The notes below the pieces were generated by a model, which did not search any database, was not told the origin of the DNA, and was given only the letters and a program-made list of their open reading frames with translations. Position numbers and translations under genes: made by a program. From IMG/VR virus record IMGVR_UViG_3300005253_000164: 64,000 nt of DNA, one strand, 5' to 3'. Shown in pieces: positions 2,262-61,404 of the stretch (position 1 is its first letter; each line of letters starts with the position of its first letter). The stretch is from an uncultured virus (IMG/VR IMGVR_UViG_3300005253_000164). Lineage: Duplodnaviria > Heunggongvirae > Uroviricota > Caudoviricetes.

Positions 2262-3098
2262 ATGTCTAAAAGAACAAGACCTCACTATCAGAAATCCCAG
2301 AAAGGAAATGTTAGTAAAAGAGGTTCACCCAAAGGTAAAGTTACTCATAACATTTCAATTAATCCTAGGAAATGGAGAAAGAAAAAAACAGCTCCAACAA
2401 GACATGGGACTGAACTAATAGTAACTAAAGAGTATGCTCAAGCTCTTGCAGATATAAATGGACAAATTCTAGATATTAATAAGGAAATTAATGATTATCA
2501 AAGAAGAGGTGAGGCAACTCCCCAAGGGCTACTTGATGATAAAGCAAAATTAAAACAAGAAATCTTGCAGATCAGAGAGGATGTTCAAGAAGAATTAGAT
2601 TCTCATCCTATTAATAATGTTGAAATGAGAGAAAATCTTTCCACTTCTGAAATTATCGATGCAGTTGAAGAAAAACAGAAACCTATTATTCTTGAAAAAT
2701 TAGAAGCTACTAAGGTTCGCAGAGAGCATGAAAAGACAGGCAAAAAAGCTAAAGAAGCAGAAGCTAAGAAAAAGAAGGAAGGTGTCTCTGTTAGTGTTAC
2801 AGCACTCAAAACCTCTACGAAATCGATGACACCAGATCAAATCCACAACATCAATAGTGTTGTTGTAGCAATTCGTGATGATGGTCACTTTGGTACTTTT
2901 GATAGAAGGAATTCAAAACAATTCACAGACATAAAAACTGCTCTCGAAAAAACGTCTTTGACACAACAAATGATTAAAGACTTGAAGGCAGATGAACATT
3001 TAGCAGTCTCATACAATGAGAAGTCTAAGAAGTTTGGTTATGCGATTGATAAAGATGTATCGAAAGCAAAAGACCAAGCCAAATCCAGAGCAAGGTAA
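2262..3098 (+). CDS. Hypothetical coiled-coil protein with RxHY basic N-tail
   Basis: 278 aa ORF, starts MSKRTRPHYQK. Confidence 0.8.
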   Translation: MSKRTRPHYQKSQKGNVSKRGSPKGKVTHNISINPRKWRKKKTAPTRHGTELIVTKEYAQALADINGQILDINKEINDYQRRGEATPQGLLDDKAKLKQEILQIREDVQEELDSHPINNVEMRENLSTSEIIDAVEEKQKPIILEKLEATKVRREHEKTGKKAKEAEAKKKKEGVSVSVTALKTSTKSMTPDQIHNINSVVVAIRDDGHFGTFDRRNSKQFTDIKTALEKTSLTQQMIKDLKADEHLAVSYNEKSKKFGYAIDKDVSKAKDQAKSRAR

Positions 3099-3106
3099 GG
3101 CTAAAA

Positions 3107-3892
3107 ATGAGTCGCAGATCCCATTATCACAAAAATAAAGATGTAGTTTCCAAAAGAGGTAATTCCAGATCTACTTCTCACGAAGCACCTTGGTCCCCTT
3201 TCAAAAAGAAGGAAAAGAAGGAAAAAATAACCATTCGCAAAAAGAATGAAATTAGAGATCTTCCTTCTATGAAACAAGATCAAGTCGCATCGATATTAAA
3301 TTCATTAAAACCTCATAAAGATCTCCCAGAACAATCGATAGTAATTTCAGAGAAAAAGGGTATTATACTTCAAAAAGAAGGAAGGAATAAGGTAGTAACA
3401 TACGAACCTAAAGCATCAGAAGAACATGTTTATGCAGATCAACCAAAAAATACATTGTATGACATTCATACACATGGAGAGTGGTCAGTTCATTCTGCTC
3501 CAGACGTATTAGTTTTACTAAAATATCCTTCAGTAAAAGAATCAATATTGATGACACCAAAGGAGCATCCAAATGCAAGTAATTTGATTTATGTTCTAAG
3601 CAGAACAAATCTACCTGCAAGGAATAAAATAATCCCTGTTAATGATATAGATTTCGATAAGAAATTTCTGAAGGAATACAATGATGCAATGAAGGCAGGA
3701 AAGAAACACATTCGTTCCAAAAAGAATGCTGTTGATTGGTTTGATGATCCAACTCTTCGAGAAGGCTCTCTTGAAGATAAGGAAATGGCTGCCGAACTAA
3801 AAGGATTGGAACTATTGGGTAAACAATATGGTTTCAAAATTAGTGCCGCAGTTAGGGATACAACCCTAATAGATGAAGAGCTAATAATGTAA
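3107..3892 (+). CDS. JAB/MPN+-like metalloenzyme with RxHY N-tail
   Basis: Upstream Glu plus DIHTHGEWSVHSAPD resembles JAMM H-x-H-x(6-7)-S-x2-D. Confidence 0.55.
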   Translation: MSRRSHYHKNKDVVSKRGNSRSTSHEAPWSPFKKKEKKEKITIRKKNEIRDLPSMKQDQVASILNSLKPHKDLPEQSIVISEKKGIILQKEGRNKVVTYEPKASEEHVYADQPKNTLYDIHTHGEWSVHSAPDVLVLLKYPSVKESILMTPKEHPNASNLIYVLSRTNLPARNKIIPVNDIDFDKKFLKEYNDAMKAGKKHIRSKKNAVDWFDDPTLREGSLEDKEMAAELKGLELLGKQYGFKISAAVRDTTLIDEELIM

Positions 3893-3904
3893 CGGTGAAT
3901 TAAC

Positions 3905-4612
3905 ATGGCAAAAAAGAAAAGAAAACACAGTGCAGTTCGAGGACAAGTAACTCATAGCAAAGGACAGAAGAAATTAGAACTGAAAAAATATGATGCCGCA
4001 GTAGGGGTTGAAGCCAGAGGTTTTGCTTTAGGTATTCAGACGAGAGATGAACGTAAAATGCGGATGCATAAAGACAATATTGATGGTCTTAAAGCACAAG
4101 GATTCAAAGAGATTGAACGAATGGACCGACAAATTGATGTAGATCCAAGAACTTCCTCAACAGAAAGTTATACTGAAGATGAAGTCAAAGGAGCTATGAG
4201 GGCAGGTATTGAAGAATATCGTTTGAGATATAGGGATTTAAGTGATCCTTATCTTGAACAAGCATCAAGTGGAACACATGCACCAGAAAGAGTTCAAAGG
4301 GATGCAACCGAAATGCTCAAGAAAGTTCAAAAATCTATGAAGTTGAATAAATTGACTGCTGACCAATTATCAGAAAAAGAAGGTCTTGATCAGATTATTC
4401 CTCTTTCCGATGAGCCCATTTTATTAGCAGAAATCAATAAATTTACTCCAGAAGATTCTGGTCGATCAAGAGCTTTATCAGAAGATGTAAGGGCATACTA
4501 TGATTTCATGATTATAAAGCTGGATCAGACAAAAGAAACCAGACCAATTAATGCCTGGTCACTTGCAAGTTCATACCTAATCTATCGTGCTTCACTCTAC
4601 GGAAGAAAATAA
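3905..4612 (+). CDS. Hypothetical protein with basic N-tail (RKHS variant)
   Basis: 235 aa ORF preceded by GGTGA SD. Confidence 0.8.
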   Translation: MAKKKRKHSAVRGQVTHSKGQKKLELKKYDAAVGVEARGFALGIQTRDERKMRMHKDNIDGLKAQGFKEIERMDRQIDVDPRTSSTESYTEDEVKGAMRAGIEEYRLRYRDLSDPYLEQASSGTHAPERVQRDATEMLKKVQKSMKLNKLTADQLSEKEGLDQIIPLSDEPILLAEINKFTPEDSGRSRALSEDVRAYYDFMIIKLDQTKETRPINAWSLASSYLIYRASLYGRK

Positions 4613-4680
4613 ATGCTAAACTAACCGTTATATATAAATAAAGTGCCATGATTTAAAAACAAACAAGAGAAGTATTTGAT

Positions 4681-7329: not shown

Positions 7330-7503
7330 ATGGAAACTACACAAATATATGATCCTATTTATATTACAAATTCTAAGTTTTGGAATTATGTAAAATGTAG
7401 GATATGTCATGCTATCCTTACAAAAGATGGAGACACAATAATCTGTTTAGATTGTGGGTTTAAACACCCCGCAATCAAACTAATTGAATTATGTAGTATC
7501 TAA
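7330..7503 (+). CDS. 57-aa Zn-ribbon microprotein (not in ORF track)
   Basis: METTQIYDP...CRIC...CLDCG...; stop immediately precedes the 15-bp repeat. Confidence 0.6.
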   Translation: METTQIYDPIYITNSKFWNYVKCRICHAILTKDGDTIICLDCGFKHPAIKLIELCSI

Positions 7504-8800: not shown

Positions 8801-9004
8801 ATGGATGAAAATAAAAATCCTCCAGAACCAAAATGGTTGAAATTCAAACTTCACCCAAAATGGCATATTAGAGAAGCAGGCTATCGTTGTTCACAATGCA
8901 ATGCATATAATGGACCCGATCACGAAGCATTTTCAGTTGATAAACATGATACTGATAGATTAGGCTATATTTGTAGAAAATGCTATGACCTCCTCTCTAA
9001 ATAA
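8801..9004 (+). CDS. Zn-finger microprotein
   Basis: CSQC...CRKC; CTCTCCT-ATG start. Confidence 0.7.
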   Translation: MDENKNPPEPKWLKFKLHPKWHIREAGYRCSQCNAYNGPDHEAFSVDKHDTDRLGYICRKCYDLLSK

Positions 9005-13412: not shown

Positions 13413-13817
13413 ATGAGTGAAAATGGAATAATCACAATTAGAACACTAGAATGCGATGTCTGTGACAGATATGATTCTATAATGCTTTCTGAAGAGGAAG
13501 TCATTACCAGATCAAAATCAACAGACATGGGCATAGGTGCATATTCAGTTGTGCATAAAGATCACACCAGAATCATCTACTTTGATAAAGATGGAACATA
13601 TCTTGGGGATACAATAGCAATGAATCCCGATGACGTGCCAGATACAATAAAAGATGGGCCTAATAAACCAACAGATGAATGGTTTGACACCCTCCCTGGT
13701 AAACAATTAGAAGACGACATCTATGGAGTAGATGAAGATTCTAAAGTGGTCGAGAAACCAAGAAAAAGAGGTAAAATAATTACTTTCTTTACTCAAAGGT
13801 TTTCAACAAAACGCTGA
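13413..13817 (+). CDS. Asgard-type Zn-binding domain protein
   Basis: ECDVC...GIGAYSVVHKDHTRIIYFDKDGTYLG resembles the CxxC...H..H..D..G domain I recognise from Loki/Heimdall proteins. Confidence 0.5.
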   Translation: MSENGIITIRTLECDVCDRYDSIMLSEEEVITRSKSTDMGIGAYSVVHKDHTRIIYFDKDGTYLGDTIAMNPDDVPDTIKDGPNKPTDEWFDTLPGKQLEDDIYGVDEDSKVVEKPRKRGKIITFFTQRFSTKR

Positions 13818-21549: not shown

Positions 21550-21610
21550 TTCTCTCAAAATCGGCAGGTTAAATAATCATGCCGAGTATAATATATATAG
21601 GGATACTCTC
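21547..21610 (+). promoter_or_regulatory. Internal promoter cassette (TCGGCA...TGCCGA palindrome + TATA) flanked by CTCTC on both sides
   Basis: 59 bp identical to 33826-33884; variants at 22690-22745 and 16368-16412. Confidence 0.85.
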
Positions 21611-21614
21611 TTTT

Positions 21615-28217: not shown

Positions 28218-28283
28218 TTCAAAATAGATTTTGGAACGAGGTCTGGGTAATAATACATAAATATGATTTCAAATAACTCTCAT

Positions 28284-40813: not shown

Positions 40814-40864
40814 TAAACATAAACAAACCTCTCTCTTTATAATCACCAGATTTATTCTTTGTTT

Positions 40865-47100: not shown

Positions 47101-49064
47101 ACTTTCAATTTATATATTCATCATCATTAATCAAATACTATGGATCATGGAAAATATTTTGGAAATGAAGAACTAAGTGATGGTGAAGTATGGTCACTAA
47201 TTGCATATTCTATTTTATTCATTATAGGCTTAATTATAATTTTTAGAAAATCACCTACAAAATACAAACTTGCAGACATATTAGTATTTCTTGGTTTGTT
47301 TTTAATTCTTGCCCAAAATACATATCATTTAGAACATGGTGAGCAATTGGAACAATATCAACTCATGGGTTACGCACTGATTTTCGGATTAATAAATTAC
47401 ATTGTTGGATGGGTTATGGCAAATAATGGATTTCCTGTGTCATTCATTGATCATAGTAAAGATGCATTCTATTGGTTTGGATTATTCTTGGTATTAGCAA
47501 CTATTATATTTGTCATGTTTGGCACATTTGATTCGGGATACCCAGGTAATCTTACTAATACTGAAAAATATATTGCTTATACTGGAATTGTAGGTGGTAT
47601 ATTATTACTGACATCCTATCTCGCTGTTAGAAGTAAAAAATAAATTTATATTGAATTTACAAATATTAGAAACATAAACTGAACTTTCAATTTATATATT
47701 CAACCCAGATATACAATTTATATGGCAAAGACAAAAAGCTCAGACATGTTTGGATTTATAGGAATCGCAATGGGATCAATGGCAATCGCTATGGCAGTAT
47801 TGAGGGCATTATTTGGTGAAAGTACCCTGTTTGATCTCTCAAAAGGAGCTTTCCTTGATGTTTCAGATGCAATCATAGTAGCAGTATTATTTTTTGGTGG
47901 AATTTTTATATTGGCTGTATCTGTTAAAAACAAAAAGAAAAATCAGATTGCAGTAGATACAATTGTTATAATTGTTATAATTGTGGTAATAAACCTACTC
48001 CTTGATGTTGAGTTTGATCTCTTCAATTTTTAAAACATAAACCGAACTTTCAATTTAAATAATCAGCAATGTTAACTAAATTGTGGATATTTTCATATCA
48101 GTCTATCTTATAATGGTTGCAGTCATACTTAAACCAAGACTTGAAAGAGTGATAAAGCGTATTCCAGAAAATTATTTGATTTGGTTAGCATTTTCTCCAA
48201 TTATTTTATACTTCCTAAGTTTCTACAATTGGTTATATGATAGTTACCTTTCAATTAGCTCAAGACAAATTGAATTTTCTGGTAGTGAAAGTCTGATTCA
48301 TCCAATAAATGCATTTATTTTTGTTACAATATCTTATTGGGTAGTAGGCTACGTGTTGTTGATATTCTATGAAAAGATAAAGGAGAGATCTACCAATGCC
48401 AAAAAAGAAACCTAAAACAATTAATGTTTCATACACATTATTATTCATATTATCTTGGTTTTTAATACCAAGTATTTACGCTTATACTGTAATTAACCAG
48501 ATATTTCTAGCAATAGGAATTACTGAAATTAATAAAAATATATACAGCTCGGTATTCATTGTTCTTGGAATAATAATAACAGCTTTCGTATTCTGGATAA
48601 GCAATTACAAAAGCAAGAAGTAAAACTTAAACAGAACTTTGAATTTTTAAATGAGATGAAATACTATTAATTATATGAAAAAAATGAGACTTTTGGGATT
48701 TTTTGTATCCATAGTTGGGATAATTTTCTATGCTATGGGTTTTCACGCTCTATTTTATGGAAGTAGTGGTCTATTTGAAAATATTGTGGATCAATTGGTT
48801 GATATTATTGCAATAGGTGGAACTCCATCTTCAGCGATAAATTATTCTATTGCAGTTGGATTGTTTTTAGTTGGAGCCTTCTTTATAATTGGTGGTGGAT
48901 CATTAATGCCAGATGTAAATAAGAACGTAACAAAGCTTTTCAAAACTTCGTTTATTGTGATAATTGTAATTCCTTTCGTAGTAATGATTTATAATTATGT
49001 AAACGATGTTGATTTTGATGTATTCAATTTATAAAAACATAAACAAAACTTTCAACTTTTAAAT
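47088..49064 (+). promoter_or_regulatory. Five copies of promoter motif AAAC(A/T)TAAACNRAACTTTSAAYTT(TATA-like) at ~47088, 47670, 48033, 48623, 49035
   Basis: Read directly; TATA-like part ~25 nt before each ATG; relatives at 2200, 40815, 56634, 56970, 63068. Confidence 0.85.
47140..49034 (+). CDS. Cluster of five small membrane proteins (47140-47643, 47722-48033, 48083-48415, 48396-48623, 48675-49034)
   Basis: 2-5 TM helices each; 47722 and 48675 share the C-terminal DVxFDxFN. Confidence 0.8.
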
Positions 49065-49088: not shown

Positions 49089-49808
49089 ATGCCTCGATCA
49101 AGTAAACGTATCTCCAATGAGAAGGCAATCGATGTGAAGGGAACGTCACTTAAAACAAAGACTTTACCCAGAAATATACTACCTGTTAAACATCATGCAG
49201 CAGCAGTTGCAACTGAACAGATAGTAATTTCCGATGAACACATTGCAGGGCTTCTTGAAGAGGGATGGACCAAGGAATCAACTTTTGAAACAGAGGTTTT
49301 AGAAGATATTTATCCTGGCTCTACTGATCATCATTTATTGAGTAAACATCTAAAAGCAAGAGGTTTTCGATTAATAAATGATCTACCAATGGAGTTAGAA
49401 GTTGCTATGCTGGATAAACAGAAATTAAAGGATGCAGATTATATATTCGAGTTATCCAGATCTGATGCAAAAGCCACTGTTCTGACGAGAACTGCTGAAA
49501 AATATACCAAAGCCCTACCCAGATACAATCCGAATGATCCCAACAATAATTTCTTTGGAAGAAGTTATGTGGTTGCTGTGATTGATGAATTTGGGAAAGT
49601 ATATGCTATATCTGTCTCACAAAATATACTAAGACAAATCCCAACTACAAAGAGAAAGGGGCGACCACAAACCAACCTTCACACATTCAATAATGCATAC
49701 AAAAAAGAAACTAAGAATGCAAGAAAGGCATATAGTCGCCAAGATACACAAGGCAGATATTCAAAGAATCGAAAAGATTATGTTGATGAGCTGCGAGGTA
49801 AAAAATAA
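49089..49808 (+). CDS. Hypothetical protein with basic N-tail
   Basis: MPRSSKR...RNILPVK; first gene of the coupled 49-54 kb operon. Confidence 0.75.
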   Translation: MPRSSKRISNEKAIDVKGTSLKTKTLPRNILPVKHHAAAVATEQIVISDEHIAGLLEEGWTKESTFETEVLEDIYPGSTDHHLLSKHLKARGFRLINDLPMELEVAMLDKQKLKDADYIFELSRSDAKATVLTRTAEKYTKALPRYNPNDPNNNFFGRSYVVAVIDEFGKVYAISVSQNILRQIPTTKRKGRPQTNLHTFNNAYKKETKNARKAYSRQDTQGRYSKNRKDYVDELRGKK

Positions 49809-50719
49809 TGAAAACTCGTAAACGCATTCTTACTAGTCCAAAAGGTAAGAAAAGAACCATTGATGTGAATTCTGGGACAAAGAAACCAATTAGGAAAAGC
49901 AATTTATTACCCCCACAATACACTATCAATATGACTCAACCAACAGGGAAGAACCGAATTCTTGTAAATCGAGGTGAAGTTCCTTATAGTGACATAATGT
50001 TCCATAAGGACCAAAAGAATTCTTCTTCATTAATAGTGAAAAGAAAATATCGTAAAAAATTCATCTCGGCAGGAATAATTGGAGAACCAGTTGGTCTTGG
50101 AGTTAGGAAAAAAGATAGGCAATTTGATAAGAATCCAACAAATTTTACAGTTAGTCCTTACGATATGATGTATGCCAATGAAATTGGTTTACTTGATCCA
50201 GAAACGATGTCAAGACGACAAGTAACCAGAGAATTAGAAAGATGGGGATTAAGACAGGATCCAGCTTTCTTTAACAAATATTCCTCTTATAAAAAGTTGA
50301 GAGATAATGGTTTCATAGTAATGAGTGGCCTTCAATATGGAGTTGACTTTGTTGCATATGATCTCACACCTACTGAATTTACTTCTAAAGAGATGAAGAA
50401 ACACAGTAAATATATGATTGATATTATGGATGAACCAACTCTTCACATGTCTAACATAATTAAAGGACTGGAAGAAGCTAAAGAAATCAATAAGGAATAT
50501 ATTCTCATGCAAGCAGGAGATACTAAACTATCCAAGAGGTACTTAGATCGCCCAACTGATAAAATTAGGTTCTACGCTATTGATGCAGAAGCACTTCTTG
50601 TGGATAATGAATATGATCTGGATGCTGTAATTATGAGGCGGATAAAGCAATCCAAAACATATCGGACTTTTCCAGTGGAAATTAGGGACACCTATGTGGA
50701 GTTAGATGACGATGAGTGA
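49808..50719 (+). CDS. endA: tRNA-splicing endonuclease-like protein, catalytic type
   Basis: KYSSYKKLRDNGFIVMSGLQYGVDFVAY...HSKYMI...EINKEYIL aligns to the EndA catalytic domain with the Tyr/His/Lys triad. Confidence 0.8.
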   Translation: MKTRKRILTSPKGKKRTIDVNSGTKKPIRKSNLLPPQYTINMTQPTGKNRILVNRGEVPYSDIMFHKDQKNSSSLIVKRKYRKKFISAGIIGEPVGLGVRKKDRQFDKNPTNFTVSPYDMMYANEIGLLDPETMSRRQVTRELERWGLRQDPAFFNKYSSYKKLRDNGFIVMSGLQYGVDFVAYDLTPTEFTSKEMKKHSKYMIDIMDEPTLHMSNIIKGLEEAKEINKEYILMQAGDTKLSKRYLDRPTDKIRFYAIDAEALLVDNEYDLDAVIMRRIKQSKTYRTFPVEIRDTYVELDDDE

Positions 50720-51656
50720 AAAACCAAAAAGAAAACATTATGCTAAAATTAAGAAGCGGATGTCTGCTAGAGGCACTACCGAGGCAATGAATAAACATTC
50801 TGGGAGATCATTTGAATCAAGTGCAATAAAACAAGCAAAGACCACTCAAAATACACGAATATGGAATTCAAGAAAACCAGAATTGATATATGGCCCATAT
50901 TTAGATAATAATTATATTCCACCTGTGATGAGGGAAGAATTAAAATTATTAGGTGTTCATTATCGTGTGGGAAGAGATACTCCCTATACTCCAGTAATTG
51001 CTATGGATCCATACAAAGTTTCAATACAAGAACTACATGACCATGGTATTGTTATTGAAATGAATAGACAAGATCGTCACAAATGGAGAATGTCTGGTTA
51101 TGATTTACTTCACATTCTAGAGAATAAACTAATCCAAGATAGTCCAATAAATGATCGCAGCTATGATGCATTCAGAAATTATATGGAAAGTCAAGATCCA
51201 GATTTCACAGAAAAATATTTTGTCTATAAAGAATTGAAGGAATCTGGTGCAATAGTTATGGATGCCACAATGCATGGTTATGACTTCATTGTGTATGAAG
51301 AACCAAGTGAGGACTTCATAAAAGAATTACAGAAAATTCCTATTGCAAGAATCGGAGCTAAGAAGAATCTTCCAGATAGACGTAAGAGTAGTTTTGCATC
51401 CATAAACGGTGTCGGATTGGTGACAGTAATGACTGCCGATAATGAATACACAGTGAAAGAAGTAATCAAAGCACAACACATTGCACAGAAGAATAAGATC
51501 AAATATCTTATGACTAATGCAGATGGGTATCATGATGAGGATGGGCATTTAGTTGTTCCAATAGAGAATTCGACCAAAGTATATGACACAAGACATATGA
51601 GGAAGAATTTAACTACTGCCAGAGGTAATGAAACAATTATTGGAACTGGTGAATAA
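50706..51656 (+). CDS. tRNA-splicing endonuclease-like protein, probably structural subunit; RxHY N-tail
   Basis: KYFVYKELKESGAIV...GYDFIVYE; catalytic His not evident. Confidence 0.7.
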   Translation: MTMSEKPKRKHYAKIKKRMSARGTTEAMNKHSGRSFESSAIKQAKTTQNTRIWNSRKPELIYGPYLDNNYIPPVMREELKLLGVHYRVGRDTPYTPVIAMDPYKVSIQELHDHGIVIEMNRQDRHKWRMSGYDLLHILENKLIQDSPINDRSYDAFRNYMESQDPDFTEKYFVYKELKESGAIVMDATMHGYDFIVYEEPSEDFIKELQKIPIARIGAKKNLPDRRKSSFASINGVGLVTVMTADNEYTVKEVIKAQHIAQKNKIKYLMTNADGYHDEDGHLVVPIENSTKVYDTRHMRKNLTTARGNETIIGTGE

Positions 51657-52846
51657 TGGGTAAAAATCGCAGATCTCACTATAAAAAGAAAGGAACAAAA
51701 GTGTCACACTATGCTCCACGATCATTAAAAGATGTGAAACCTATCAAGTGGGATCAGTTCGCAACTGATAAAGAGGGTAGAAAAGTAGCTCCAGAAACAA
51801 GGTTTGTTAGAGGGCAACATAACGATTACCATTCTTTATCATCCCCTAAAGGAAATAAAGGAATTGTTTACCCAAAACATTTTCCTAATCCAAATACAAT
51901 CATCATTGATGCAAACACAGATCACATAGACGTAAAAGTGATTATAGAGAATTTAGTTCAACATGGAATTGATCCAGATGAAATAAGACAAGATTATGAA
52001 GAAACATTTTATTTAACTTCTTTAATAAGGGGAGTTCTGGTTAATGGTGGTGTCAGAGAGATAAAAGTGTTTGGTGAAACAATCAAAACTGAAGAATCTG
52101 TAATTGAACGCTATGATCGCTTAGAGACACTTGGTTTGACTGATATGGTCATTGATGCACAATATAATACAATTATGGATCTGATAGAATTAGCAGATGG
52201 TAAATTGGCAACAGATGTTTCTCTCCAATATAAGACAATAGAGAAAACAAGAGGAATGGTCCCTGTCATTGATGCGTCTAATTATACCACAGATAATCTA
52301 GATGATCGACCACTGACACATATTTTCAAAAATTATTTTGGTCAACCTGGATATGATATAAACGAGAATCTATATTTAGTTGCAGCTAAAATAATAAATC
52401 TTGTTTATGGATTACAGTCTGCAATGGAACAAGCTGAACGTAAGGCACTTCCAGAACAAGCTGAAGAACAAGCAAAAGAATCTGCTGAAATAATAGAAAA
52501 AACTCAAGAAGATCTATCAAAGATAATCTTCGAGGCATATCAAAAAGAAACTACTATTAAGGAAAAAGGTAGAAAAACTTCTGTTAGAATTGAAGAGCCA
52601 TCAGAATTAACAAGTAAAGAGCAAAGGACTGCTCAAAGAATATTTGAGAAACCTCAAGGTGTAGATTTATTATCTGAACTAGACAAAGCTCTTGAGAAGT
52701 TGACTGTTTCAGAAGAAATAATCATCCCAGAAGAAATAATCAAGGAAAAGAGAATTGGTTCTAGTTTTGAGAATTTAGAATCAGTTGAAGAAATCCTTGA
52801 TAATTGGGAGCCTCCTGTAAGAAAAGAAAAGGAGGAATCTGAATGA
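51656..52846 (+). CDS. Hypothetical RxHY-tail protein with MIM-like C-terminal module
   Basis: C-terminal block shared with 52843. Confidence 0.8.
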   Translation: MGKNRRSHYKKKGTKVSHYAPRSLKDVKPIKWDQFATDKEGRKVAPETRFVRGQHNDYHSLSSPKGNKGIVYPKHFPNPNTIIIDANTDHIDVKVIIENLVQHGIDPDEIRQDYEETFYLTSLIRGVLVNGGVREIKVFGETIKTEESVIERYDRLETLGLTDMVIDAQYNTIMDLIELADGKLATDVSLQYKTIEKTRGMVPVIDASNYTTDNLDDRPLTHIFKNYFGQPGYDINENLYLVAAKIINLVYGLQSAMEQAERKALPEQAEEQAKESAEIIEKTQEDLSKIIFEAYQKETTIKEKGRKTSVRIEEPSELTSKEQRTAQRIFEKPQGVDLLSELDKALEKLTVSEEIIIPEEIIKEKRIGSSFENLESVEEILDNWEPPVRKEKEESE

Positions 52847-54441
52847 GACGACAACACTATAAGAAATCTGGTGATAAAGCCAGAAAGATGAAAGGCAATT
52901 CCAAAAAACCTGTTCATAGAAATAGAGTTATTCATCGTGTGGATCAAGGCCAATATATCTCCAACAATTTTTTAAATTCAAATGATATAGATGGAGATTT
53001 CTTCAGCTCTTCTGAAGAGGCAACCATTAAAAACAGACAAATGATCCGCCCAAAAATATTCGACATTTTAACTGGTGATGCTATAACTATTTTGAAAAAC
53101 TCCTATCCCACCAATAGAGATAGACACTTAACCCAGATTAATGAAGAATTAAATGAACAATTCAATCTGGCAACAAGTGAGCAGAAGGGTTGGGTTAAAC
53201 TGGAACTATTTATAACCCCCTCTGACCAATTACAATTCAATCTGACCTTATTTGGTGGAGATGAGGATGATACTTCAGAGGATAATTTACAAATAATTTT
53301 TGAAGAATTAGAAGATCCTCTGAACCTACATTATAAAGAGCAATTCTTCAAAAATTATGCCGAGCTACCATCTCTTGATATATTTAAAGATGAAATGGAT
53401 CAGAATATAGAAAAATCAGTTGCTTCAATTGTTAATGATCTAGATCCATCAATGTATGAACAAATGAAAACTGATGAAGGAGAGCCAATTCCCAACGCTT
53501 ATGGTCCAGCCCCAATGGTAATGCTTGCATATGAGACAGGACAAGCACCAACATATGCTGCTGAGTTAGAAAAATTAATAGATCCAGGTGCAAAGAAAGA
53601 GGGAATTAGTCCACCTAAAACAATGGCAATAACTACTTATCAAGCAATAGTAAGATATGTTGACATGCGAAATGAAGAATTAAGAGACTGGACTGATATG
53701 CATAATGAAGTGTATTTCAGGGGTTGGTATATGAATAATTTGGATTATACCCCTCTTGCAGAGGCATTTAATGCAGAATATAATAAACAAATAGATGGGT
53801 TATATGAACAACTAGTCGAGGATACTCCCAACGGAATAAATCTTCCCGAAGACGATCAAGTAACTGAAGATGGGATAATTGATAGTTTTATTGACATAAC
53901 AGGAGTCACACCTGTTTTCAAATATCATACAGATGAATATGGCAAAAATTTGGGATTATTTGATGAGGAAACAGGGAAACTTATCACATTGGGAACCATA
54001 GATGCCTTCATTAATGAAATTATAGCACATGGAGTTATGGGTGGATTACCTAAGATGGATATGGATGGGCAATACTTACGTAGACAAACTCCTTCCCCTG
54101 TTAGTAAAAAGACAGCAAGAAGAATATTTGATGAAAAATCTGAATTAACCAATAAAGAACGAAGGACTGCTCAAAGAATATTTGAGGAACCAACAGGTAT
54201 TGATTTATTGTCTGAATTAGATAAAGCACTAGAAAAGTTGAATGTTGTAGAAGCAAAACCAAAAATCAGAGAAAAGGCAAAGGAAAAACCTAGAAGGGAA
54301 AGATCTGCTTTTGAAAACATATCTACTGAAAAATCTGCATTTGAAGGATTAGAATCAATTGATGACATTCTTGACGATTGGGAAATTCCAGTAAGAGAAA
54401 AGAAATCAAGAGAGAGTGTAAAAGAAAGAGAAAAAATTTAA
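52843..54441 (+). CDS. Acidic hypothetical RxHY-tail protein with MIM-like C-terminal module
   Basis: C-terminal block shared with 51656. Confidence 0.8.
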   Translation: MRRQHYKKSGDKARKMKGNSKKPVHRNRVIHRVDQGQYISNNFLNSNDIDGDFFSSSEEATIKNRQMIRPKIFDILTGDAITILKNSYPTNRDRHLTQINEELNEQFNLATSEQKGWVKLELFITPSDQLQFNLTLFGGDEDDTSEDNLQIIFEELEDPLNLHYKEQFFKNYAELPSLDIFKDEMDQNIEKSVASIVNDLDPSMYEQMKTDEGEPIPNAYGPAPMVMLAYETGQAPTYAAELEKLIDPGAKKEGISPPKTMAITTYQAIVRYVDMRNEELRDWTDMHNEVYFRGWYMNNLDYTPLAEAFNAEYNKQIDGLYEQLVEDTPNGINLPEDDQVTEDGIIDSFIDITGVTPVFKYHTDEYGKNLGLFDEETGKLITLGTIDAFINEIIAHGVMGGLPKMDMDGQYLRRQTPSPVSKKTARRIFDEKSELTNKERRTAQRIFEEPTGIDLLSELDKALEKLNVVEAKPKIREKAKEKPRRERSAFENISTEKSAFEGLESIDDILDDWEIPVREKKSRESVKEREKI

Positions 54442-54484: not shown

Positions 54485-55948
54485 ATGTCAAAAAGACCTC
54501 ACTTCTCAGTCGATCAATCCAAGTCAAAGGCATCGAAGAAGAATCCAAAGAAAATTAAAAAACAAAGGTCTAATATACTCACTCCTAAGAAGATAAAATC
54601 AAACATAAAACAATCTGCATTGAGGGCAAGACAACAATATTCCAATAAAAATTATTACACTGCAATTGAGGGATTAGGTGATGCTCTTGGAATGTACGAT
54701 GATTTAATTGATCAACTATATTCAGACAAAATATTATCTGATGGTCAGAGAAAGGATTTTCTTTCTCAATTCCAAAGAGAAAAGGATAAACTTGATGATA
54801 GAATAGAAAAAATCCAAGATAAACTAGTTGAACAAGGCGATGAGATAGCAATAATTGATCCTCAAAATAAATTTGCTCCTTTAATTACTACAAGAGACAA
54901 AATTGAAGAATTTCCAGATGTTGAGGATGTAATAGGGAATGATCATATGAAGACTTCGCTGTTACAGAATATAAAATTAGCTCAAACTAATCCTTTGATT
55001 GCAAAACAATTAGGAATTGGTAAGAATTATCTAATGTTTGGTCCACCAGGGACAGGAAAGACATTACTTGCAAAAGCATTTGCAAAAGAAACAGGTATAA
55101 ATTTCATGAATATAGAATCTGCCAATGTTTTGTCAGAGAACTTTGGAGAATCAGAGAAGAATCTGAAAGGTATATTCGCATTCGCCAGAAAGAACAAACC
55201 TACATTCATGTTCTTTGATGAGATAGATCAACTAGCTGGAACCAGATCTGGGAAAGAAGCAGGAGCAGAAACCAGAGTAAAAACCGCATTTCTGGCAGAA
55301 GTATCAGGTTTCGCAAGTGAAAATGAGGATGTATATATATTGGGGTCAACAAATCGACCTTGGGCTTTAGATCCAGCATTCAGATCAAGATTTACTGTTC
55401 AGAAGTATGTGGGCTTACCAACTCCAGAAGAAATAGGTATAATGACAAAGAGAATGCTAGAAAATCCAGAATTCCAAGAAGATTTAGTAAAAACTAAGGA
55501 TCTGGATTATGATGAACTTGGTCAATTAATGAAGGGGTATGCTGGAAGAACTGTCACAGAGAGTATCGTACAAGAGATTAGACTGATACCAATTCATGAA
55601 CAGATTGCCAAGACAGGAATTTTGGATTTGACAAAAACAAGACCTATTACTATGGCTGACTTTAGGAAGAAAATAAAGGAAACACCTAAAGCAACATCTG
55701 CTGCTGAATTGAAGAAATATGCAGAATATCGGACAGAAATGGGTGAAACTCTGGATGAGGAAGAGCCAGTTGTCATTGATACGAGAAAAGTTGTAAGAGT
55801 CGGAACTAGTAGTCGAGGTACTGTCAAGGGTTTATACAAAACAATGGCAGGGGCAGAAGATGCTAAAGATAAGAGAGGCGGAAGAGATGAGATCTATCCA
55901 GTCAAGGGAGGATGGAAAATTAGACGACCAAAAAAAAAGGTGAATTGA
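54485..55948 (+). CDS. vps4: Vps4/CdvC-like meiotic-clade AAA ATPase with putative MIT domain
   Basis: GPPGTGKT, GESEK, FFDEID, RVKTAFL, GSTNRPWALD, Vps4_C-like PITMADF...LKKYAEYRTEMG; three-helix MIT-like N-region. Confidence 0.75.
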   Translation: MSKRPHFSVDQSKSKASKKNPKKIKKQRSNILTPKKIKSNIKQSALRARQQYSNKNYYTAIEGLGDALGMYDDLIDQLYSDKILSDGQRKDFLSQFQREKDKLDDRIEKIQDKLVEQGDEIAIIDPQNKFAPLITTRDKIEEFPDVEDVIGNDHMKTSLLQNIKLAQTNPLIAKQLGIGKNYLMFGPPGTGKTLLAKAFAKETGINFMNIESANVLSENFGESEKNLKGIFAFARKNKPTFMFFDEIDQLAGTRSGKEAGAETRVKTAFLAEVSGFASENEDVYILGSTNRPWALDPAFRSRFTVQKYVGLPTPEEIGIMTKRMLENPEFQEDLVKTKDLDYDELGQLMKGYAGRTVTESIVQEIRLIPIHEQIAKTGILDLTKTRPITMADFRKKIKETPKATSAAELKKYAEYRTEMGETLDEEEPVVIDTRKVVRVGTSSRGTVKGLYKTMAGAEDAKDKRGGRDEIYPVKGGWKIRRPKKKVN

Positions 55949-56328
55949 AAACACCATCACTAATAACTGAAAAATATTTACGTAATAATAAAAATAAAAT
56001 ATTTGTTTTCGGAGACAATTTAGATCGTAAAGGAAAAGGAGGAGCAGCTAAATTAAGAGATGAAAAGAATACTTATGGATTTATTACCAAGAAACATCCT
56101 AGATCCAACGATAGTGACTTCTATACTCCAGATGAATATAAGGAAGTCTATAATCTAGAAATCATAAAACTGAAAAAAGAAATTTCTGCCAATCCAGAAA
56201 AAACATATTTAATATCGAACATTGGTGGGGGCTTAGCAAACAGGTTTGATATTAAGAAAGAGGTTATTGATAAAAATCTAAAAAAAGATTTAAATAAATT
56301 CAATAACATAGAATTTTTAGAAGAGTAA
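55945..56328 (+). CDS. Phage A1-like/macro-like domain protein
   Basis: IFVFGDN...GKGGAA...YGFITK...IGGGLA. Confidence 0.55.
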   Translation: MKTPSLITEKYLRNNKNKIFVFGDNLDRKGKGGAAKLRDEKNTYGFITKKHPRSNDSDFYTPDEYKEVYNLEIIKLKKEISANPEKTYLISNIGGGLANRFDIKKEVIDKNLKKDLNKFNNIEFLEE

Positions 56329-56387
56329 AAAGAAATAAAATATCAATAAATTAAAAAGATTTAAAAACATTAACTATACTATTAATC

Positions 56388-56967
56388 ATGCAAGAAAAAC
56401 TAAAATTACATTTAATGCATTTGAAAGGCATTATTTGGGGCATACCAATATTATATATTTATTCATTATTTATAGAGGCTTTCATCATTAATCCATTACA
56501 ATTAGACAAAAGACTTTTCGGGTTCATATACTTTTTTGGATTTTTATTATTTATTTTTATATTTGTAAAGGTACTAATATTATTATTGAAAGATTTGAAA
56601 TATTGGGTTAATCAGTTTAGAGAATTTGAATGGAAAAACATAAACAAAACATAGACTATTAAAATCTCATTAAAATAGTATTACTTGATCTAAGATGATA
56701 TTAACAAAATTAATGAAATATAAAGAATACACCTGGTGGTCTAGCGAGAGAAAACTGGTAGATAGTTGGAAATCATTTGGTTATTTATTCCTAACATGGT
56801 TATTATTTAACTTAATAACATTCTGGATTGTATCTTTAACTATCAGTCCTAAACACTTAGCACTTAGTGGGATTATAGCCATCATCATATGGACATTATT
56901 CCCTCACTACAAAATCATCCACAGATATATTAGCAGTATAGAGAAATCGAATGAAAATAATCTTTAG
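56388..56967 (+). CDS. Two 2-TM membrane proteins (56388-56654, 56695-56967)
   Basis: Hydrophobic hairpins; second preceded by the AAACATAAAC motif. Confidence 0.75.
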
Positions 56968-56999
56968 TAAAAATATAAACAAAACACAGACTATTAAAA
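56964..56999 (+). promoter_or_regulatory. Copy of the 36-bp promoter repeat (2193-2228)
   Basis: Identical sequence. Confidence 0.8.
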
Positions 57000-57026
57000 C
57001 AAACCCCATCTATATTAAAATAAGGT

Positions 57027-57575
57027 ATGCCAGAGAAACGAGGTCACTACATTCGTAAGAAAGGTGGTAAAGTAAGGAAAAGTTCGGGAGATAAAAAATC
57101 TACCCAACATAATTATTTACCTCCTGTTAAGAATGTTCCAGATATAGTTATTCAAGAGGACACAATACTGTTTTCTGATGATGAACGTAAAACAATCTGG
57201 TCAGTGACTAAAACATCAATTGTGAAAGATGAGGATATACTTGCAGATAATGAGGAAATAATCCTTGATGCAGTAATTAAGATGCCATTGGATATTGATT
57301 CTCAAAGTGATATTGGAGAGAAATATGAACTATATTATCTTGAAATAGTAAAATTTCATGCTTATTCCGAACATATGGAATTAGGTGGAGATTCATCTAC
57401 TATCAAGAAACTATCTTCAATATCTAAAAGACAATCTGTACTGAATGCAGAGATAGAAGAGATAATTAATTCAGAACCAGATTTGTCGAATCGAAATGAA
57501 TCACTAAAAATCCATAACCAAACAAAATTATTGTTAAATAGCAATGTAAGAAATCTTTTTGAGATAGGTGATTAG
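57027..57575 (+). CDS. Hypothetical RxHY-tail protein
   Basis: MPEKRGHYIRKK. Confidence 0.8.
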   Translation: MPEKRGHYIRKKGGKVRKSSGDKKSTQHNYLPPVKNVPDIVIQEDTILFSDDERKTIWSVTKTSIVKDEDILADNEEIILDAVIKMPLDIDSQSDIGEKYELYYLEIVKFHAYSEHMELGGDSSTIKKLSSISKRQSVLNAEIEEIINSEPDLSNRNESLKIHNQTKLLLNSNVRNLFEIGD

Positions 57576-57576
57576 A

Positions 57577-60500
57577 ATGGAAAAACGAACACATTACAAG
57601 AAACTTGATACCAAGGTGACGAAAGCAGGGAAAAATAAAAAAGTAAAAAATATGTCTCCTGTCATTCATGAAGCATTTCTCTCAAGAGAGAACATTTCAG
57701 ATCATAATCCATTAAGGTCACATCCAGATACAGATTTACAAAAATTATTCTCGGAGAATGGTAAAGCATTTACAAATGTAATTTATCAGAAAGAAGGCGA
57801 TCCGCTTTATGAGAAGATCCTGGATAATGTAATACTTGGTCAATTAAAAACTACACTGAATATTGAAGCCAGTAGTAATACTTTCTCTGTTGGTGTAAAA
57901 CCTAATGATGATGATTTAATATTAACTGAAAGTCAGATGGAAAATCTGATTGGGGTTCTTTTGAGAAAGAATCCAGACGCAAAGAAACTAAACGCTTTGG
58001 ATAAATTAAATCGTATTAATAGGAAACAAAGAAAATTACAACAAGGTTTTTCCAATGCAGGTTTTGGTCATAAAGATTTAACTAAAATCGCAAAAGAACA
58101 AGAGGAAATTCTTACTCTCATAAAAGATTATCAGAAAAAGAATAATGATCGTGAAATTGGTGAACTTTCTTCTTTTGATAAGATAAAACTGAAACAGAAG
58201 AAGAAGCAAATTCTCAACAAATTAACAAGATTACCCGATAAGCTAAAGGAAGCAATGCTTAGTTATGATGATTATATTTCAACAGATGGTTCAATCCCTA
58301 AACATGAATTTAGTGGTGTCGATCTTTCAAAATTAGATTTCTGGTTAGGTTCAGAAAACATCGAAATGTTTGATAAAATTCTTTCAGATGTTGAAAAAGA
58401 ACAGGATAAGAAACTAAAAAATATTGAAAAAGGGGATGAAGATAAACTCATAACTCGTTTTGGTATCTTAACAGATGACGCTACACTTATTGCTCAATTA
58501 TCAACAATAGATGATAATTTATCTTTACTTATGGAAGAAGAAGCCAATCCCACTTATATTTTAGGCATTGGAAATCCGCAACCTGCATATGAATTAGTTG
58601 ATGGGACAGATAGGACTAGATATTTAAGTTCATTAACTGAGATTAAAGAAAAAATTGGGGATTTAACAGGAGTTGCATTACCTTCTGATGATGATAATAT
58701 TTCCCCAAATCCAAATTTAGGGGAGATAAAAATATCTGGTGAGACAGATCTAGCTAATGCAATCAATGAGCAGAGTTTAAGATTGTCCAAATATGGTCGA
58801 TCAATAACCGATTCAAGGAGAAGTCACAAGAGAGTGATAATTGATCCAACAACTGGAGAGTATATGGTTAAGGCCATAGATCAGAAATCTGGAGTAATTA
58901 TTTCTTATAATAGTGCAAATGATTTATTATTTGGTTCTGCTAAACCATTTGAAGAAAGAGCAGCAGTATCAGAGTCATTAGCCTCCCAGAATTCTCCACT
59001 AAAAGCTTTGAATAGCCTAGTTAACTCATTGATAAATGGATCTATTAAAGATTATGATTTTAGTGGTTTCCCCTCTGGAAGAATAATTACAGATGCAGAA
59101 GTTGCAGAGCTAAAAGCATTAATTGAACACTTAAGAGGGGCAGGATATTCTGATGATTTGATTTTTGACTTTATTTCTGGTGCAATTGAGATTGATTTAA
59201 TTCAAGATACTTATATTCATGGAATAAATCTTTTAGTAGAATTAAGAGATATTTATCGATTGATTAGTAGTGAAGCAATCTATATTGCAAAAGAGAAATC
59301 TAGAGAAGATATTTCTTCAAACGTATTTGATAGTGAAGAATGGGCAATGTATTTTGGTGGAGAAAATGCAATTGAGCAGATGAGAGAGCTTTATGATTTT
59401 AGAACCACTGTTAGCAATGAAACACCATATATGGATGTTATCGCATATGGTGAGGAATTAGGGTTATTCAGAGTATTAGACAGGGATGAAGACGGTTATC
59501 CAAGAAAAGTTTATTCCGAACTTGATAAGAGAACAATAGAAGCAAAAGATATGCCAGATTCAATTTTAAGAAAACAATTCTTTATTGATCGGATCTATGT
59601 TGCTCTTGATGTTTTATCTGATGATAAACTAAAATTGGATCCCCAAACAAAAGAAACTTATCAGAAAAGGGCGATTGATTATCAAGTTTCTAATTGGTCA
59701 AATGAGGATGTGATGCTACAATCAAGTTTCTTTGGTGTTCCAGTATTAAATACTAATGAGGCAGCAAAACAAAGAATGAATGCAATCTCAAAACTATCAG
59801 CTATAGAAATAAAGGAAATGGTTGATGAAAATCCCCTTCTTTACAATGGATTGAAACAATTAGGTATAGATCCAGATGGAGATATTACTGAACTCTATGA
59901 GGGGGTAAAGAAGTATTTTACACAAATAGTTCTATCTGAAAGTTCAGAACGTACTCTTACCAAATTCAATTCTGCTAGAAGTAAGGGAGATGCTAAACAG
60001 GCATTCATTGCAGCAGAAAAACTTCGAACAAGTGCAACAAGAATTGATGAAGTAACCCCAACATTGCAGAAATTGGGGGCATTACATGGTGTTAGAAGTT
60101 ATCTTAATCAGCTTCCTTCCCAAAAAATAGTGGGTAAAAGTGGGAGTTTCACCAGAAAGATAGATGTTAAAGACAAAGAGACTGGTAAAACTTATACATA
60201 TTATGTTAAATATCGACCAACTAGAGCAGGCGAAAAAATTGAAGAGATAAGAAAAATAGATAGTTATCTCAAAGATTACCTGCCTGCTGAATACGATGAA
60301 ATGTTAAATGATCCCAAATTCAAAGCTCTCACCAGAGATAGGGTTAATGAGACAAGAAAATCCCAAAATGACAGAATGCAAGCGTTGACTGAATACTATG
60401 GAGAAAAAGCTCACTATTTGCTATTGGATCTTGAAAAAGAAGATCTTAGAATTCAAAAAGATGCAAATTCTATAAAGATAATGCAATTAGAATTGTTAAA

Positions 60501-61404
60501 AGAGGTTTACAAATCAAAATTGAACAATGATGATAAGAGCACATTCGATCCTTATGATATATTTGGGGCAATTCAAAAAGAGAAAACATTCCAAATAAGC
60601 AAAGCAGAACTCCAAGGTAAATTCAAAGAGGACGTATTCAAAGCAAATGAATTGAAATATGGTTTTGACAGTGATCTTTTTGCAGATCTGACCTACGACA
60701 AATCTGGACAGCCTCTCGGAGATACCCCTAAATTAGTCAGTAAAGACTTGAAAGATTTGATTAAGGGATTTGATCAAAAGAGGAAATCCGAGATTTCTAG
60801 TGAAACCAAAGCAACAATCAAGATACCAACTGCAGAATCTCCTAAAAAGAGTCCTTTGATAGTAACACCTAAATCTGGAATTGGAAGTGCTAAGAGAAAC
60901 TTTGTTACTGTATCAAATAGGTTTTCTACTCATTTAACCCGAACAGAAAACAAATTGATGAAGAACAAGCCCAGAGTTAGAAAACCAACTCCTGCTGAAA
61001 AAGAATTGATTGGAGAAATAGATGAGACAATCAAGGTCCTCAAAACTTCAAAGATGAAAATCAAAAAGTTGGCAACATCAGAGTATTCAGAAGATGCAAA
61101 CATTAAATTGATCGGTGAATTAAATATAGCTGATCAAACCTTGAAAACACAACTGAATTCTCTAAGTGAAACTTTACCACAAAAGAATATTGGAGCAGAC
61201 GACTTCAATAAGTTAGATAGTAAGGATGCACAACTTTTTACTAGAGAAGAGATGAAGGTAAGAGGTGCAACTGATGAATCAATAAATAATTTTTATTCTA
61301 AGTTTACAAATATTAAACAAAGAGATTTATATCGCTTAATGCAAGATATTATTGAAGAAAGAAAGGATTTAGGAATTCTTTCTAATAGTGTGATTAAACA
61401 ATGA
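57577..61404 (+). CDS. 1275-aa helical hypothetical protein with RxHY tail
   Basis: ATG 57577 follows GGTGA SD; MEKRTHYKK. Confidence 0.85.
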   Translation: MEKRTHYKKLDTKVTKAGKNKKVKNMSPVIHEAFLSRENISDHNPLRSHPDTDLQKLFSENGKAFTNVIYQKEGDPLYEKILDNVILGQLKTTLNIEASSNTFSVGVKPNDDDLILTESQMENLIGVLLRKNPDAKKLNALDKLNRINRKQRKLQQGFSNAGFGHKDLTKIAKEQEEILTLIKDYQKKNNDREIGELSSFDKIKLKQKKKQILNKLTRLPDKLKEAMLSYDDYISTDGSIPKHEFSGVDLSKLDFWLGSENIEMFDKILSDVEKEQDKKLKNIEKGDEDKLITRFGILTDDATLIAQLSTIDDNLSLLMEEEANPTYILGIGNPQPAYELVDGTDRTRYLSSLTEIKEKIGDLTGVALPSDDDNISPNPNLGEIKISGETDLANAINEQSLRLSKYGRSITDSRRSHKRVIIDPTTGEYMVKAIDQKSGVIISYNSANDLLFGSAKPFEERAAVSESLASQNSPLKALNSLVNSLINGSIKDYDFSGFPSGRIITDAEVAELKALIEHLRGAGYSDDLIFDFISGAIEIDLIQDTYIHGINLLVELRDIYRLISSEAIYIAKEKSREDISSNVFDSEEWAMYFGGENAIEQMRELYDFRTTVSNETPYMDVIAYGEELGLFRVLDRDEDGYPRKVYSELDKRTIEAKDMPDSILRKQFFIDRIYVALDVLSDDKLKLDPQTKETYQKRAIDYQVSNWSNEDVMLQSSFFGVPVLNTNEAAKQRMNAISKLSAIEIKEMVDENPLLYNGLKQLGIDPDGDITELYEGVKKYFTQIVLSESSERTLTKFNSARSKGDAKQAFIAAEKLRTSATRIDEVTPTLQKLGALHGVRSYLNQLPSQKIVGKSGSFTRKIDVKDKETGKTYTYYVKYRPTRAGEKIEEIRKIDSYLKDYLPAEYDEMLNDPKFKALTRDRVNETRKSQNDRMQALTEYYGEKAHYLLLDLEKEDLRIQKDANSIKIMQLELLKEVYKSKLNNDDKSTFDPYDIFGAIQKEKTFQISKAELQGKFKEDVFKANELKYGFDSDLFADLTYDKSGQPLGDTPKLVSKDLKDLIKGFDQKRKSEISSETKATIKIPTAESPKKSPLIVTPKSGIGSAKRNFVTVSNRFSTHLTRTENKLMKNKPRVRKPTPAEKELIGEIDETIKVLKTSKMKIKKLATSEYSEDANIKLIGELNIADQTLKTQLNSLSETLPQKNIGADDFNKLDSKDAQLFTREEMKVRGATDESINNFYSKFTNIKQRDLYRLMQDIIEERKDLGILSNSVIKQ

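Follow-up and report, generated by a model that had tools for sequence, protein, structure and literature searches.

Why would a set of proteins encoded by one virus, most of them with unrelated bodies, begin with the same short basic peptide? The question is raised by a 64,000-nt stretch of the IMG/VR record IMGVR_UViG_3300005253_000164 (the window), from an uncultured virus classed with the Caudoviricetes, in which an earlier note, made from the sequence alone, described an R-x-H-Y motif near the N terminus of nine proteins and read it as a portable sorting or packaging leader. We analysed the window together with the 10 kb beyond its end (74 kb of the 145-151 kb record). We find a modular N-terminal leader, specific to this lineage and about 20-35 residues long, and its sharing among proteins is non-random, far beyond chance. 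Shared targeting peptides are how viruses and compartments choose their protein cargo. We know of no shared targeting peptide defined for archaeal viruses, although we made no literature search aimed at that question.

Four operons (2262-4612, 49089-54441, 54485-56328 and 57027-61853) encode the leader proteins, and 11/13 of their soluble proteins carry the leader if two basic variants lacking RxHY are included. The leader proteins are as follows.

2262..3098, plus strand: 278-aa protein of unknown function that opens tag cluster A; leader MSKRTRPHYQKSQKGNVSKRG...NISINP.
3107..3892, plus strand: 261-aa protein; leader MSRRSHYHKNKDVVSKRG; body with HTHGEWSVHSAPD, a JAMM-like HxHx6Sx2D motif.
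3905..4612, plus strand: 235-aa protein; variant leader MAKKKRKHSAVRGQVTHSKG, with RKHS instead of RxHY; sister ortholog P0129.
49089..49808, plus strand: 239-aa protein that opens the cluster B operon; basic leader without RxHY, NILP at residue 29.
49808..50719, plus strand: 303-aa EndA-like protein; leader without RxHY, charge +11 over residues 1-35, NLLPP at residue 32.
50712..51656, plus strand: 314-aa second EndA-like protein; leader MSEKPKRKHYAKIKKRMSARG; NYIPP at residue 67.
51656..52846, plus strand: 396-aa protein of unknown function; leader MGKNRRSHYKKKGTKVSH; C-terminal domain in common with the 52843 protein.
52843..54441, plus strand: 532-aa protein of unknown function; leader MRRQHYKKSGDKARKMKG; GGAGG upstream, ATG overlapping the preceding stop.
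54485..55948, plus strand: 487-aa Vps4/CdvC-like AAA ATPase; 31-residue leader MSKRPHF...SNILTP, then MIT, AAA and a C-terminal extension of ~65 aa.
57027..57575, plus strand: 182-aa protein of unknown function; leader MPEKRGHYIRKKGGKVRKSSG...NYLPP.
57577..61404, plus strand: 1275-aa protein of unknown function; leader MEKRTHYKKLDTKVTKAG...NMSP.

All nine motifs described earlier were recovered (RPHY at 2262, RSHY at 3107, RKHS at 3905, RKHY at 50706, RSHY at 51656, RQHY at 52843, RPHF at 54485, RGHY at 57027 and RTHY at 57577), each beginning at residue 3-9. Across 139 non-overlapping plus-strand open reading frames (ORFs) of the window and its 10 kb extension (21,749 aa), R.H[YF] begins within residues 1-15 of eight, against 0.18 expected from composition, and 5000 shufflings of the N termini gave a mean of 0.14 and a maximum of 3. 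The remaining 19,247 positions contain a single match (RHHY, residue 113 of the 16625 ORF). When open frames that start with ATG and span 30 codons or more were counted in all six frames, 9 of 819 ATGs had the motif, all of them from the same eight genes (the 50706 and 50712 ATGs were counted separately). In 38 unrelated archaeal loci used as controls, none of 242 ORFs with 100 aa or more carried an R.H[YF] leader. Equal frequency elsewhere would have spoken against a leader and is not what we see, as neither the other ORFs of the element nor the archaeal controls have the motif at their N termini. Additionally, ranking 119 ORFs by net charge over residues 1-35 places the nine tagged proteins, 49808 and 49089 in the top 11 positions.

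Aligned, the leaders give the consensus M-x-x-K-R-x-H-Y-x-K-x-x-x-K-V-S-K-x-G. A basic residue directly precedes the invariant Arg in 8/9 tagged proteins, forming a [KR]-R-x-H-[YF] box at residues 3-10, which is followed by a short stretch, often containing Gly, and then by V-[ST]-K-x-G. This second box, described before as V/M-S/T/R-K/A-x-G, is real: it occupies residues 13-17 in 7/9 tagged proteins, always 9-11 residues past the Arg, and the pattern [VMA]-[STR]-[KAH]-x(0-2)-G is found in only 1/128 untagged N termini, with 9 matches in 17,579 other positions. The proposed N-hydrophobic-P box near residue 25-35 held in part. It is enriched, with 7 matches in 6/11 leader proteins versus 8 in 20,869 aa elsewhere, but is strict only in cluster B, where all six carriers of N-[hydrophobic]-[LIST]-(x)-P are encoded and five of them have it at about residue 25-32.

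The leaders are Lys-rich and contain 26-37% K/R and 0-9% D/E, with a hydrophobic fraction of 0.14-0.31 and no hydrophobic core. Within their first 45 residues, hydrophobic runs reach a maximum of 1-5 residues, and a Sec/Tat signal peptide was rejected on these short runs and the lack of an h-region. Codons for the motif residues differ between genes (AGA or CGA for R, CAT or CAC for H, and TAT, TAC or TTC for Y/F). Thus, constraint acts on the protein and not on DNA or RNA, and this variation among genes rules out a nucleotide-level signal.

Are the leaders part of the proteins, or do they lie upstream of the true start codons, as the earlier note had considered? The internal genes 3905, 51656, 52843 and 57577 have GGTGA or GGAGG 5-10 nt upstream, or a start that abuts or overlaps the preceding stop (at 3905, GGTGA lies 6 nt before the ATG). 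The operon-first genes 2262, 49089 and 57027 begin 52-60 nt downstream of a promoter-like box and a TATA-like stretch. The large gene starts at ATG 57577, not at GTG 57568, and its counterpart in a sister element, P0002, begins MEKRTHY; for the gene called at 50706, the product in the record itself (P0132) begins at ATG 50712. In the sister element the leaders differ by in-frame gaps only, and no frameshift or indel disrupts any of the nine RxH-tagged leaders. From these signals the leader is predicted to be translated as part of the proteins, and placing it upstream of the true starts does not agree with them.

The sister element lies on a 97-kb contig and has orthologs of ten leader proteins. 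Identity between the two elements is 308/354 (87%) over residues 1-35 and 3184/3898 (82%) over the remainder, and the RxH motifs are unchanged in 9/9 cases. In the 2262 protein and its ortholog P0140, residues 1-35 are 100% identical and the remainder 74%. The leaders are conserved as much as the bodies or more, which indicates a present function. Overall identity between the 51656 protein and its sister counterpart P0124 is only 40%, yet P0124 keeps MGRRDHYRKKGNKAGKVSH and is nearly identical over its last ~100 residues, a pattern that suggests either domain-wise recombination or very uneven constraint.

Beyond this pair of elements we found no leader. The profile search that the earlier note had called for was made with ten leaders; it returned 14 matches at E<=10 among 6218 candidate longer proteins, all of them from the element's own contigs or the sister contig. 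Candidates in this search must share 5-residue words with the leaders, so distant leaders could be missed. The profile had no match at E<=10 in two Heimdallarchaeota genomes, an empty result that carries little weight, and none among PDB sequences. The bodies are similarly isolated. Among candidates drawn from 5.8 billion clusters, the 1275-aa protein has one relative, P0002, which is 84% identical and has the same start; no further relative of either turned up in viral_contigs, genome_contigs, the phage collection or 400 Asgard genomes. When 1.84 billion representatives were searched exhaustively by HMMER with the 52843 protein as query, only that protein, P0124 and P0125 were retrieved, all three of this lineage.

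The description of the tagged bodies as unrelated is mostly right, but all-against-all BLAST shows two paralogous pairs, 49808/50706 through the EndA domain and 51656/52843 through the C-terminal 111 aa (a domain in common of ~110 aa at 50-53% identity). The third linked pair in this comparison consists of the two AAA proteins, 10227 and 54485. No PDB sequence matched the 2262, 51656 or 52843 protein significantly, and the 2262 protein also had no match in Pfam, PHROG or NCBIfam.

One leader placed before a recognizable protein is that of 54485. This protein matches the NCBIfam CdvC model at E=1e-49, residues 39-416 covering model positions 9-365 of 370, with a score of 169 bits against a curated equivalog cut-off of 650. 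As this score is far under the cut-off, we regard the protein as a divergent homolog and not an ortholog. In an AlphaFold2 (AF2) model built from a 22-sequence alignment (mean predicted local distance difference test score, pLDDT, 68.5), residues 1-31 have pLDDT <50 and no secondary structure (this is the sole leader modelled in this way), helices at 34-53, 57-80 and 86-116 form a three-helix MIT bundle, and the AAA module follows, with a C-terminal extension modelled at low confidence. Residues 385-420 give a weak Vps4_C match of 18.7 bits, below the 21.3-bit cut-off. Foldseek matched the model best to Vps4, spastin and FIGNL1, and the AAA part is 34-41% identical to Asgard Vps4. The body as modelled is therefore a complete MIT+AAA Vps4-like protein, with MIT bundle, single meiotic-clade AAA domain and Vps4 C-terminal helix.

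The cellular Asgard Vps4 proteins examined lack the leader, as anticipated. R.H[YF] occurs in 0/30 of them (374-409 aa); the MIT helix comes directly at their start, and residues 1-35 carry a net charge of -2 to +6, versus +11 in 54485. Residues 423-487 of 54485 form a basic C-terminal extension of ~65 residues, with a small beta-hairpin at 469-480 predicted at low confidence; the extension is missing from 30/30 of the cellular proteins. A homolog search with the Vps4-like protein was dominated by CDC48 proteins and gave nothing useful, and nothing relevant to virus-encoded Vps4 or CdvC surfaced among the items listed by a literature search.

A second case is provided by the two adjacent EndA-like genes. 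PF01974, the catalytic domain of tRNA-intron endonucleases, is matched by 49808 at E=3.7e-15 (56.2 bits, cut-off 27; catalytic domain at residues 154-235) and by 50712 at E=1e-6 (29.1 bits, cut-off 27), while TIGR00324 scores of 47.5 bits (E=1.8e-12) and 25.3 bits, respectively, both lie below the curated 59.6. The two proteins are 33% identical over 86 aa. The basic N-terminal extension of both is missing from the one Heimdallarchaeota EndA that we aligned (202 aa), in line with the expectation that cellular EndA lacks it. In this 3-sequence alignment 49808 has candidates for the Tyr, His and Lys residues, and 50712 has no aligned His. Heteromeric archaeal splicing endonucleases pair catalytic and structural subunits, and the genes at 49808-50719 and 50712-51656 resemble such pairs. 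Thus, the leader is a modular add-on, as had been supposed: it precedes a complete Vps4-like protein and an EndA-like protein whose cellular homologs, where examined, are without it.

The 3107 protein is more difficult to place. It was described as JAB-like, and the HTHGEWSVHSAPD motif is present, but this motif is the sole basis for the name, with no Pfam match even at E<=10 (PF04233 and PF06152 included). The motif is one residue shorter between HxH and S than the JAMM motif E...HxHx7Sx2D. An ESM Atlas feature search reached only 0.82-0.84 to JAB-containing clusters. Phage minor-capsid and Mu F-type clusters are the nearest neighbours of the ESM Atlas model (predicted template modelling score 0.67), but their TM of 0.52-0.55 is too low for a family to be named. 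This likeness may be compatible with a packaging role, as a lead only.

The operons that encode the leader proteins also appear to be co-regulated. A box of the form aaA[CT]ATAAAC-NN-AAC[AT], followed by an A/T-rich TATA-like stretch, stands 48-60 nt upstream of nine genes. The box pattern with at most one mismatch has 17 matches, against 6.6 +/- 2.7 expected, and 0/100 shuffles reach 17. The copies are as follows.

2202-2215, plus strand: promoter-like box ATATAAACAAAACA, 60 nt upstream of 2262.
47090-47103, 47672-47685, 48035-48048, 48625-48638 and 49037-49050, plus strand: five box copies, 48-52 nt upstream of genes.
56638-56651, plus strand: box upstream of the 56695 membrane-protein gene.
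56973-56986, plus strand: box 54 nt upstream of 57027, almost identical to the 2262 box.
63071-63084, plus strand: box 58 nt upstream of the 63129 gene.

The boxes from 47090 to 48625 serve the small membrane-protein genes 47140, 47722, 48083 and 48675, and the box at 49037 lies 52 nt before 49089. The 63129 gene (ending at 64079) encodes a hydrophobic N terminus and a beta-helix region with weak Beta_helix and NosD-type matches. Regions upstream of 2262 and 57027, which are 55 kb apart, share ~33 nearly identical bases, and at the 54485 operon the box is present as a weaker variant only. From the shared box, the tag operons starting at 2262, 49089 and 57027 form a putative single regulon with small membrane proteins and a predicted secreted beta-helix protein. 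An extra box match occurs at 40817, 473 nt from the next called gene.

What does the leader do? We favour, at a probability of roughly 0.45, a lineage-specific address or packaging leader that ties the proteins to the nucleoprotein of the element or to a scaffold-type receptor, and thereby brings them into a particle or vesicle; both the mechanism and the destination are what we infer here. The leader would serve as a common address, so that binding of one shared partner would bring all tagged proteins to the same place. The nucleic acid or nucleoprotein core of the element itself, or else a receptor of scaffold type, would most probably be the partner, and the place would most probably be the interior of a particle or vesicle that the co-regulated membrane and surface proteins build. 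A basic beta-hairpin arm would suit two boxes held at fixed spacing about a Gly-rich turn, although this is a guess. The portable sorting or packaging leader of the earlier note survives insofar as the leader is conserved, predicted to be translated, modular and attached to one co-regulated gene set, but the virion or compartment as its destination is not supported.

Several observations weigh against such an address. Among 117 proteins compared with Pfam and 43 compared with PHROGs we recognised none for a capsid, portal, terminase or other part of a particle, so we infer the existence of the particle itself. A Vps4-like ATPase would be expected in the cytoplasm, not as packaged cargo, and its leader lacks the V-S-K-x-G box and does not dock on the MIT domain in cis in the AF2 model. 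The V-[ST]-K-x-G and N-hydrophobic-x-P patterns were both defined post hoc, and the latter is altered in the sister element (NILP to NTLP, NYLPP to NYLSP). The leader is known only from this element and its close sister, and portability across lineages is thus hypothetical. Finally, the tandem arrangement of the genes leaves room for spread by duplication.

Such spread could leave the leader as a relic of common descent with no role as a portable signal, in which one ancestral gene was duplicated in tandem, bodies were replaced or diverged beyond recognition, and the N terminus persisted, for example as an oligomerisation strand. The tandem genes, the two paralogous pairs and the near-identical ~33 nt upstream of 2262 and 57027 are what this history would leave. 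We nevertheless consider it improbable, because the absence of the leader from cellular homologs of the Vps4-like and EndA-like proteins implies, for these two at least, addition to a pre-existing protein, and because the leaders are at least as well conserved as the bodies. An artefact is barely credible, whether through mis-called starts that turn 5' untranslated regions into leaders or as a by-product of A-rich codons that favour initiation. A-rich early codons are common in AT-rich genomes, which would allow for the latter. However, the Shine-Dalgarno-like sites, the starts abutting stops and the promoter-like box 50-60 nt before operon-first starts all argue for the starts as called, the sister element shows only in-frame gaps, R-x-H-Y and V-S-K-x-G are encoded by varying codons, and ~128 other ORFs of the same base composition are without the motif.

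It is possible, though unlikely, that the leader is a nucleic-acid-binding arm used by each enzyme for its own function, with no sorting and with the shared motif reflecting a shared ligand. The arm would tether enzymes that act on RNA or DNA, such as the EndA-like nucleases, to their substrate, comparable to basic arms at the N termini of ribosomal and capsid proteins. This would account for leaders that are rich in K/R, poor in acidic residues and devoid of a hydrophobic core, for the disorder of the 54485 leader in AF2, and for the RNA-endonuclease fold of 50712 and its neighbour 49808. It would account less well for a two-box motif whose fixed spacing exceeds a generic polycation, or for a leader on the Vps4-like ATPase and the 1275-aa protein, which have no evident need of such an arm, and those EndA and Vps4 proteins of cells that were examined do without one. 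An arm of this kind overlaps the address that we favour if DNA is the shared partner. About as improbable as the relic is a handle for the element's AAA+ machines, either 54485 through its MIT domain or the AAA protein encoded at 10227. Here N-hydrophobic-x-P(P) would act as a proline-type MIT-interacting motif, and the ATPase would act on tagged proteins by unfolding, translocating or loading them. AAA+ unfoldases usually take hold at disordered termini, a complete MIT+AAA protein and a second AAA protein are both products of the element, and N-hydrophobic-x-P is enriched about 20-fold in the leaders. On the other hand, the ATPase is itself tagged, cluster A leaders lack the strict box, the sister element keeps it incompletely, and the AF2 model offers no leader-MIT contact in cis. 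A further reading, which we regard as a long shot, is a sorting signal for which a new kind of archaeal virus, possibly one infecting Asgard archaea, would have its own receptor or translocation machine. Such a virus would build a membrane-bounded particle or intracellular compartment by means of a Vps4-type ATPase that it encodes, and would import a defined set of enzymes there. By analogy, and with just as little probability, such import might be a prokaryotic, virus-encoded counterpart of the nuclear localization signal (NLS) or of phage-nucleus import.

The setting of the leader genes is that of an orphan, one-strand, AT-rich, archaeal virus-like element. GC content in the window is 0.28-0.37, and the plus strand carries almost every long ORF. 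Most products have no family assignment in the Pfam and PHROGs comparisons, the window contains no tRNA genes or Rfam families, and the 41981 and 18952 proteins have no relatives in the phage collection or viral_contigs. We met no description of the element or the leader in passages of PMC13700489 and bioRxiv 10.1101/2021.07.29.453957. Other features that could be named are the following.

3-755: PrsW-like protein.
792-1979, minus strand: TnpB/IS605 OrfB, the sole long minus-strand gene, directly adjoining tag cluster A.
10227 gene: AAA protein of 711 aa.
25351: GP88-family protein.
55945-56328: DUF7831 protein, in the tag operon starting at 54485, without leader.

The TnpB is 50-52% identical to multicopy TnpB of two Heimdallarchaeota metagenome-assembled genomes, with more distant copies in Bathyarchaeia and methanogens. 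These relatives point to an archaeal setting, and they weakly indicate a possible Asgard host for the element. The sister contig joins position 55936 to 56634 with 5 other letters, and thus lacks the DUF7831 gene and most of the small membrane-protein gene 56388-56654. As the DUF7831 gene is skipped there, it looks like an accessory insertion or deletion in the tag cluster. Elsewhere in the window, two PAPS-reductase-like genes are present at 20461-21549 and 28263-29348 (phrog_424, E=2e-12 and 2e-22), and a paralogous gene pair at 21579-22115 and 35363-35854 has 86% identity across 162 aa. Many small ORFs in the middle part (5-46 kb) have CxxC...CxxC zinc-ribbon-like patterns with weak Pfam zinc-ribbon matches, including those at 7330-7500, 8801-9004, 13413-13817, 23844-24020, 25038-25343, 30576-30755 and 35879-36103.

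A compact two-box leader thus defines a set of 9-11 proteins that includes RNA-endonuclease-like proteins and a virus-encoded Vps4-like ATPase. [quoted passage not shown] If it is only a nucleic-acid-binding arm, it would still be a new and sharply defined short motif.

Compared with known systems, the leader belongs to none of four classes: the T4 capsid targeting sequence (CTS), encapsulin or microcompartment peptides, the NLS, and capsid arms. The T4 CTS, found on internal proteins IPI-III and Alt, is a peptide of ~10 residues that is not polybasic, suffices to load proteins into the prohead and is cut off by the prohead protease after L/I-x-E. The earlier note likened the leader in concept to this sequence or to an NLS. 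The concept is indeed alike, with a short N-terminal peptide on 9-11 largely unrelated proteins of one virus and the idea of a portable address, but the leader fits neither the CTS pattern nor a bipartite NLS. It is longer (20-35 residues) and polybasic, L/I-x-E occurs within the first 45 residues of 2/11 proteins, and the Pfam and PHROGs scans recognised no prohead protease family or HK97-type capsid gene. A T4-type CTS was rejected on the L/I-x-E count and the lack of a recognised prohead protease.

Encapsulin cargo peptides are mostly C-terminal and microcompartment encapsulation peptides are amphipathic helices; both bind the shell interior. Like the leader, they are short conserved peptides on unrelated enzymes, and they are encoded beside shell genes, whereas the Pfam scan found no shell protein families here. 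The leader differs in being N-terminal and polybasic, with no helix in residues 1-31 of the one leader modelled (54485). With the NLS it shares a short, K/R-rich, portable character and a dibasic KR or RR at its start. However, the bipartite pattern KR-x(10-12)-(3 of 5 basic) fits 1/11 leaders and the monopartite K-[KR]-x-[KR] 5/11, and a strict classical NLS was rejected because its consensus, above all the bipartite form, fits too few. Nor does an NLS have anything like the conserved H-[YF] and V-S-K-x-G, and the genes stand in prokaryote-type operons with Shine-Dalgarno-like sites. The importin-beta N-terminal family PF03810 had no match in two Heimdallarchaeota genomes, nor in the control genomes of that search, which makes the empty result uninformative.

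The basic arms of capsid and core proteins, such as the arginine-rich motifs in small icosahedral viruses and the arms of adenovirus core proteins, are disordered polycations that bind the packaged genome. They resemble the leader as disordered polycationic N termini, and they end up inside the particle, but they belong to structural proteins and lack a shared R-x-H-Y...V-S-K-x-G, which is here found on a set of enzymes. Finally, the Vps4-like protein itself shares with cellular Vps4/CdvC the three-helix MIT domain, linker, single AAA domain and Vps4-type C-terminal helix, and differs in what has been added at its two ends, a basic leader of 31 residues and a C-terminal extension of ~65 aa.

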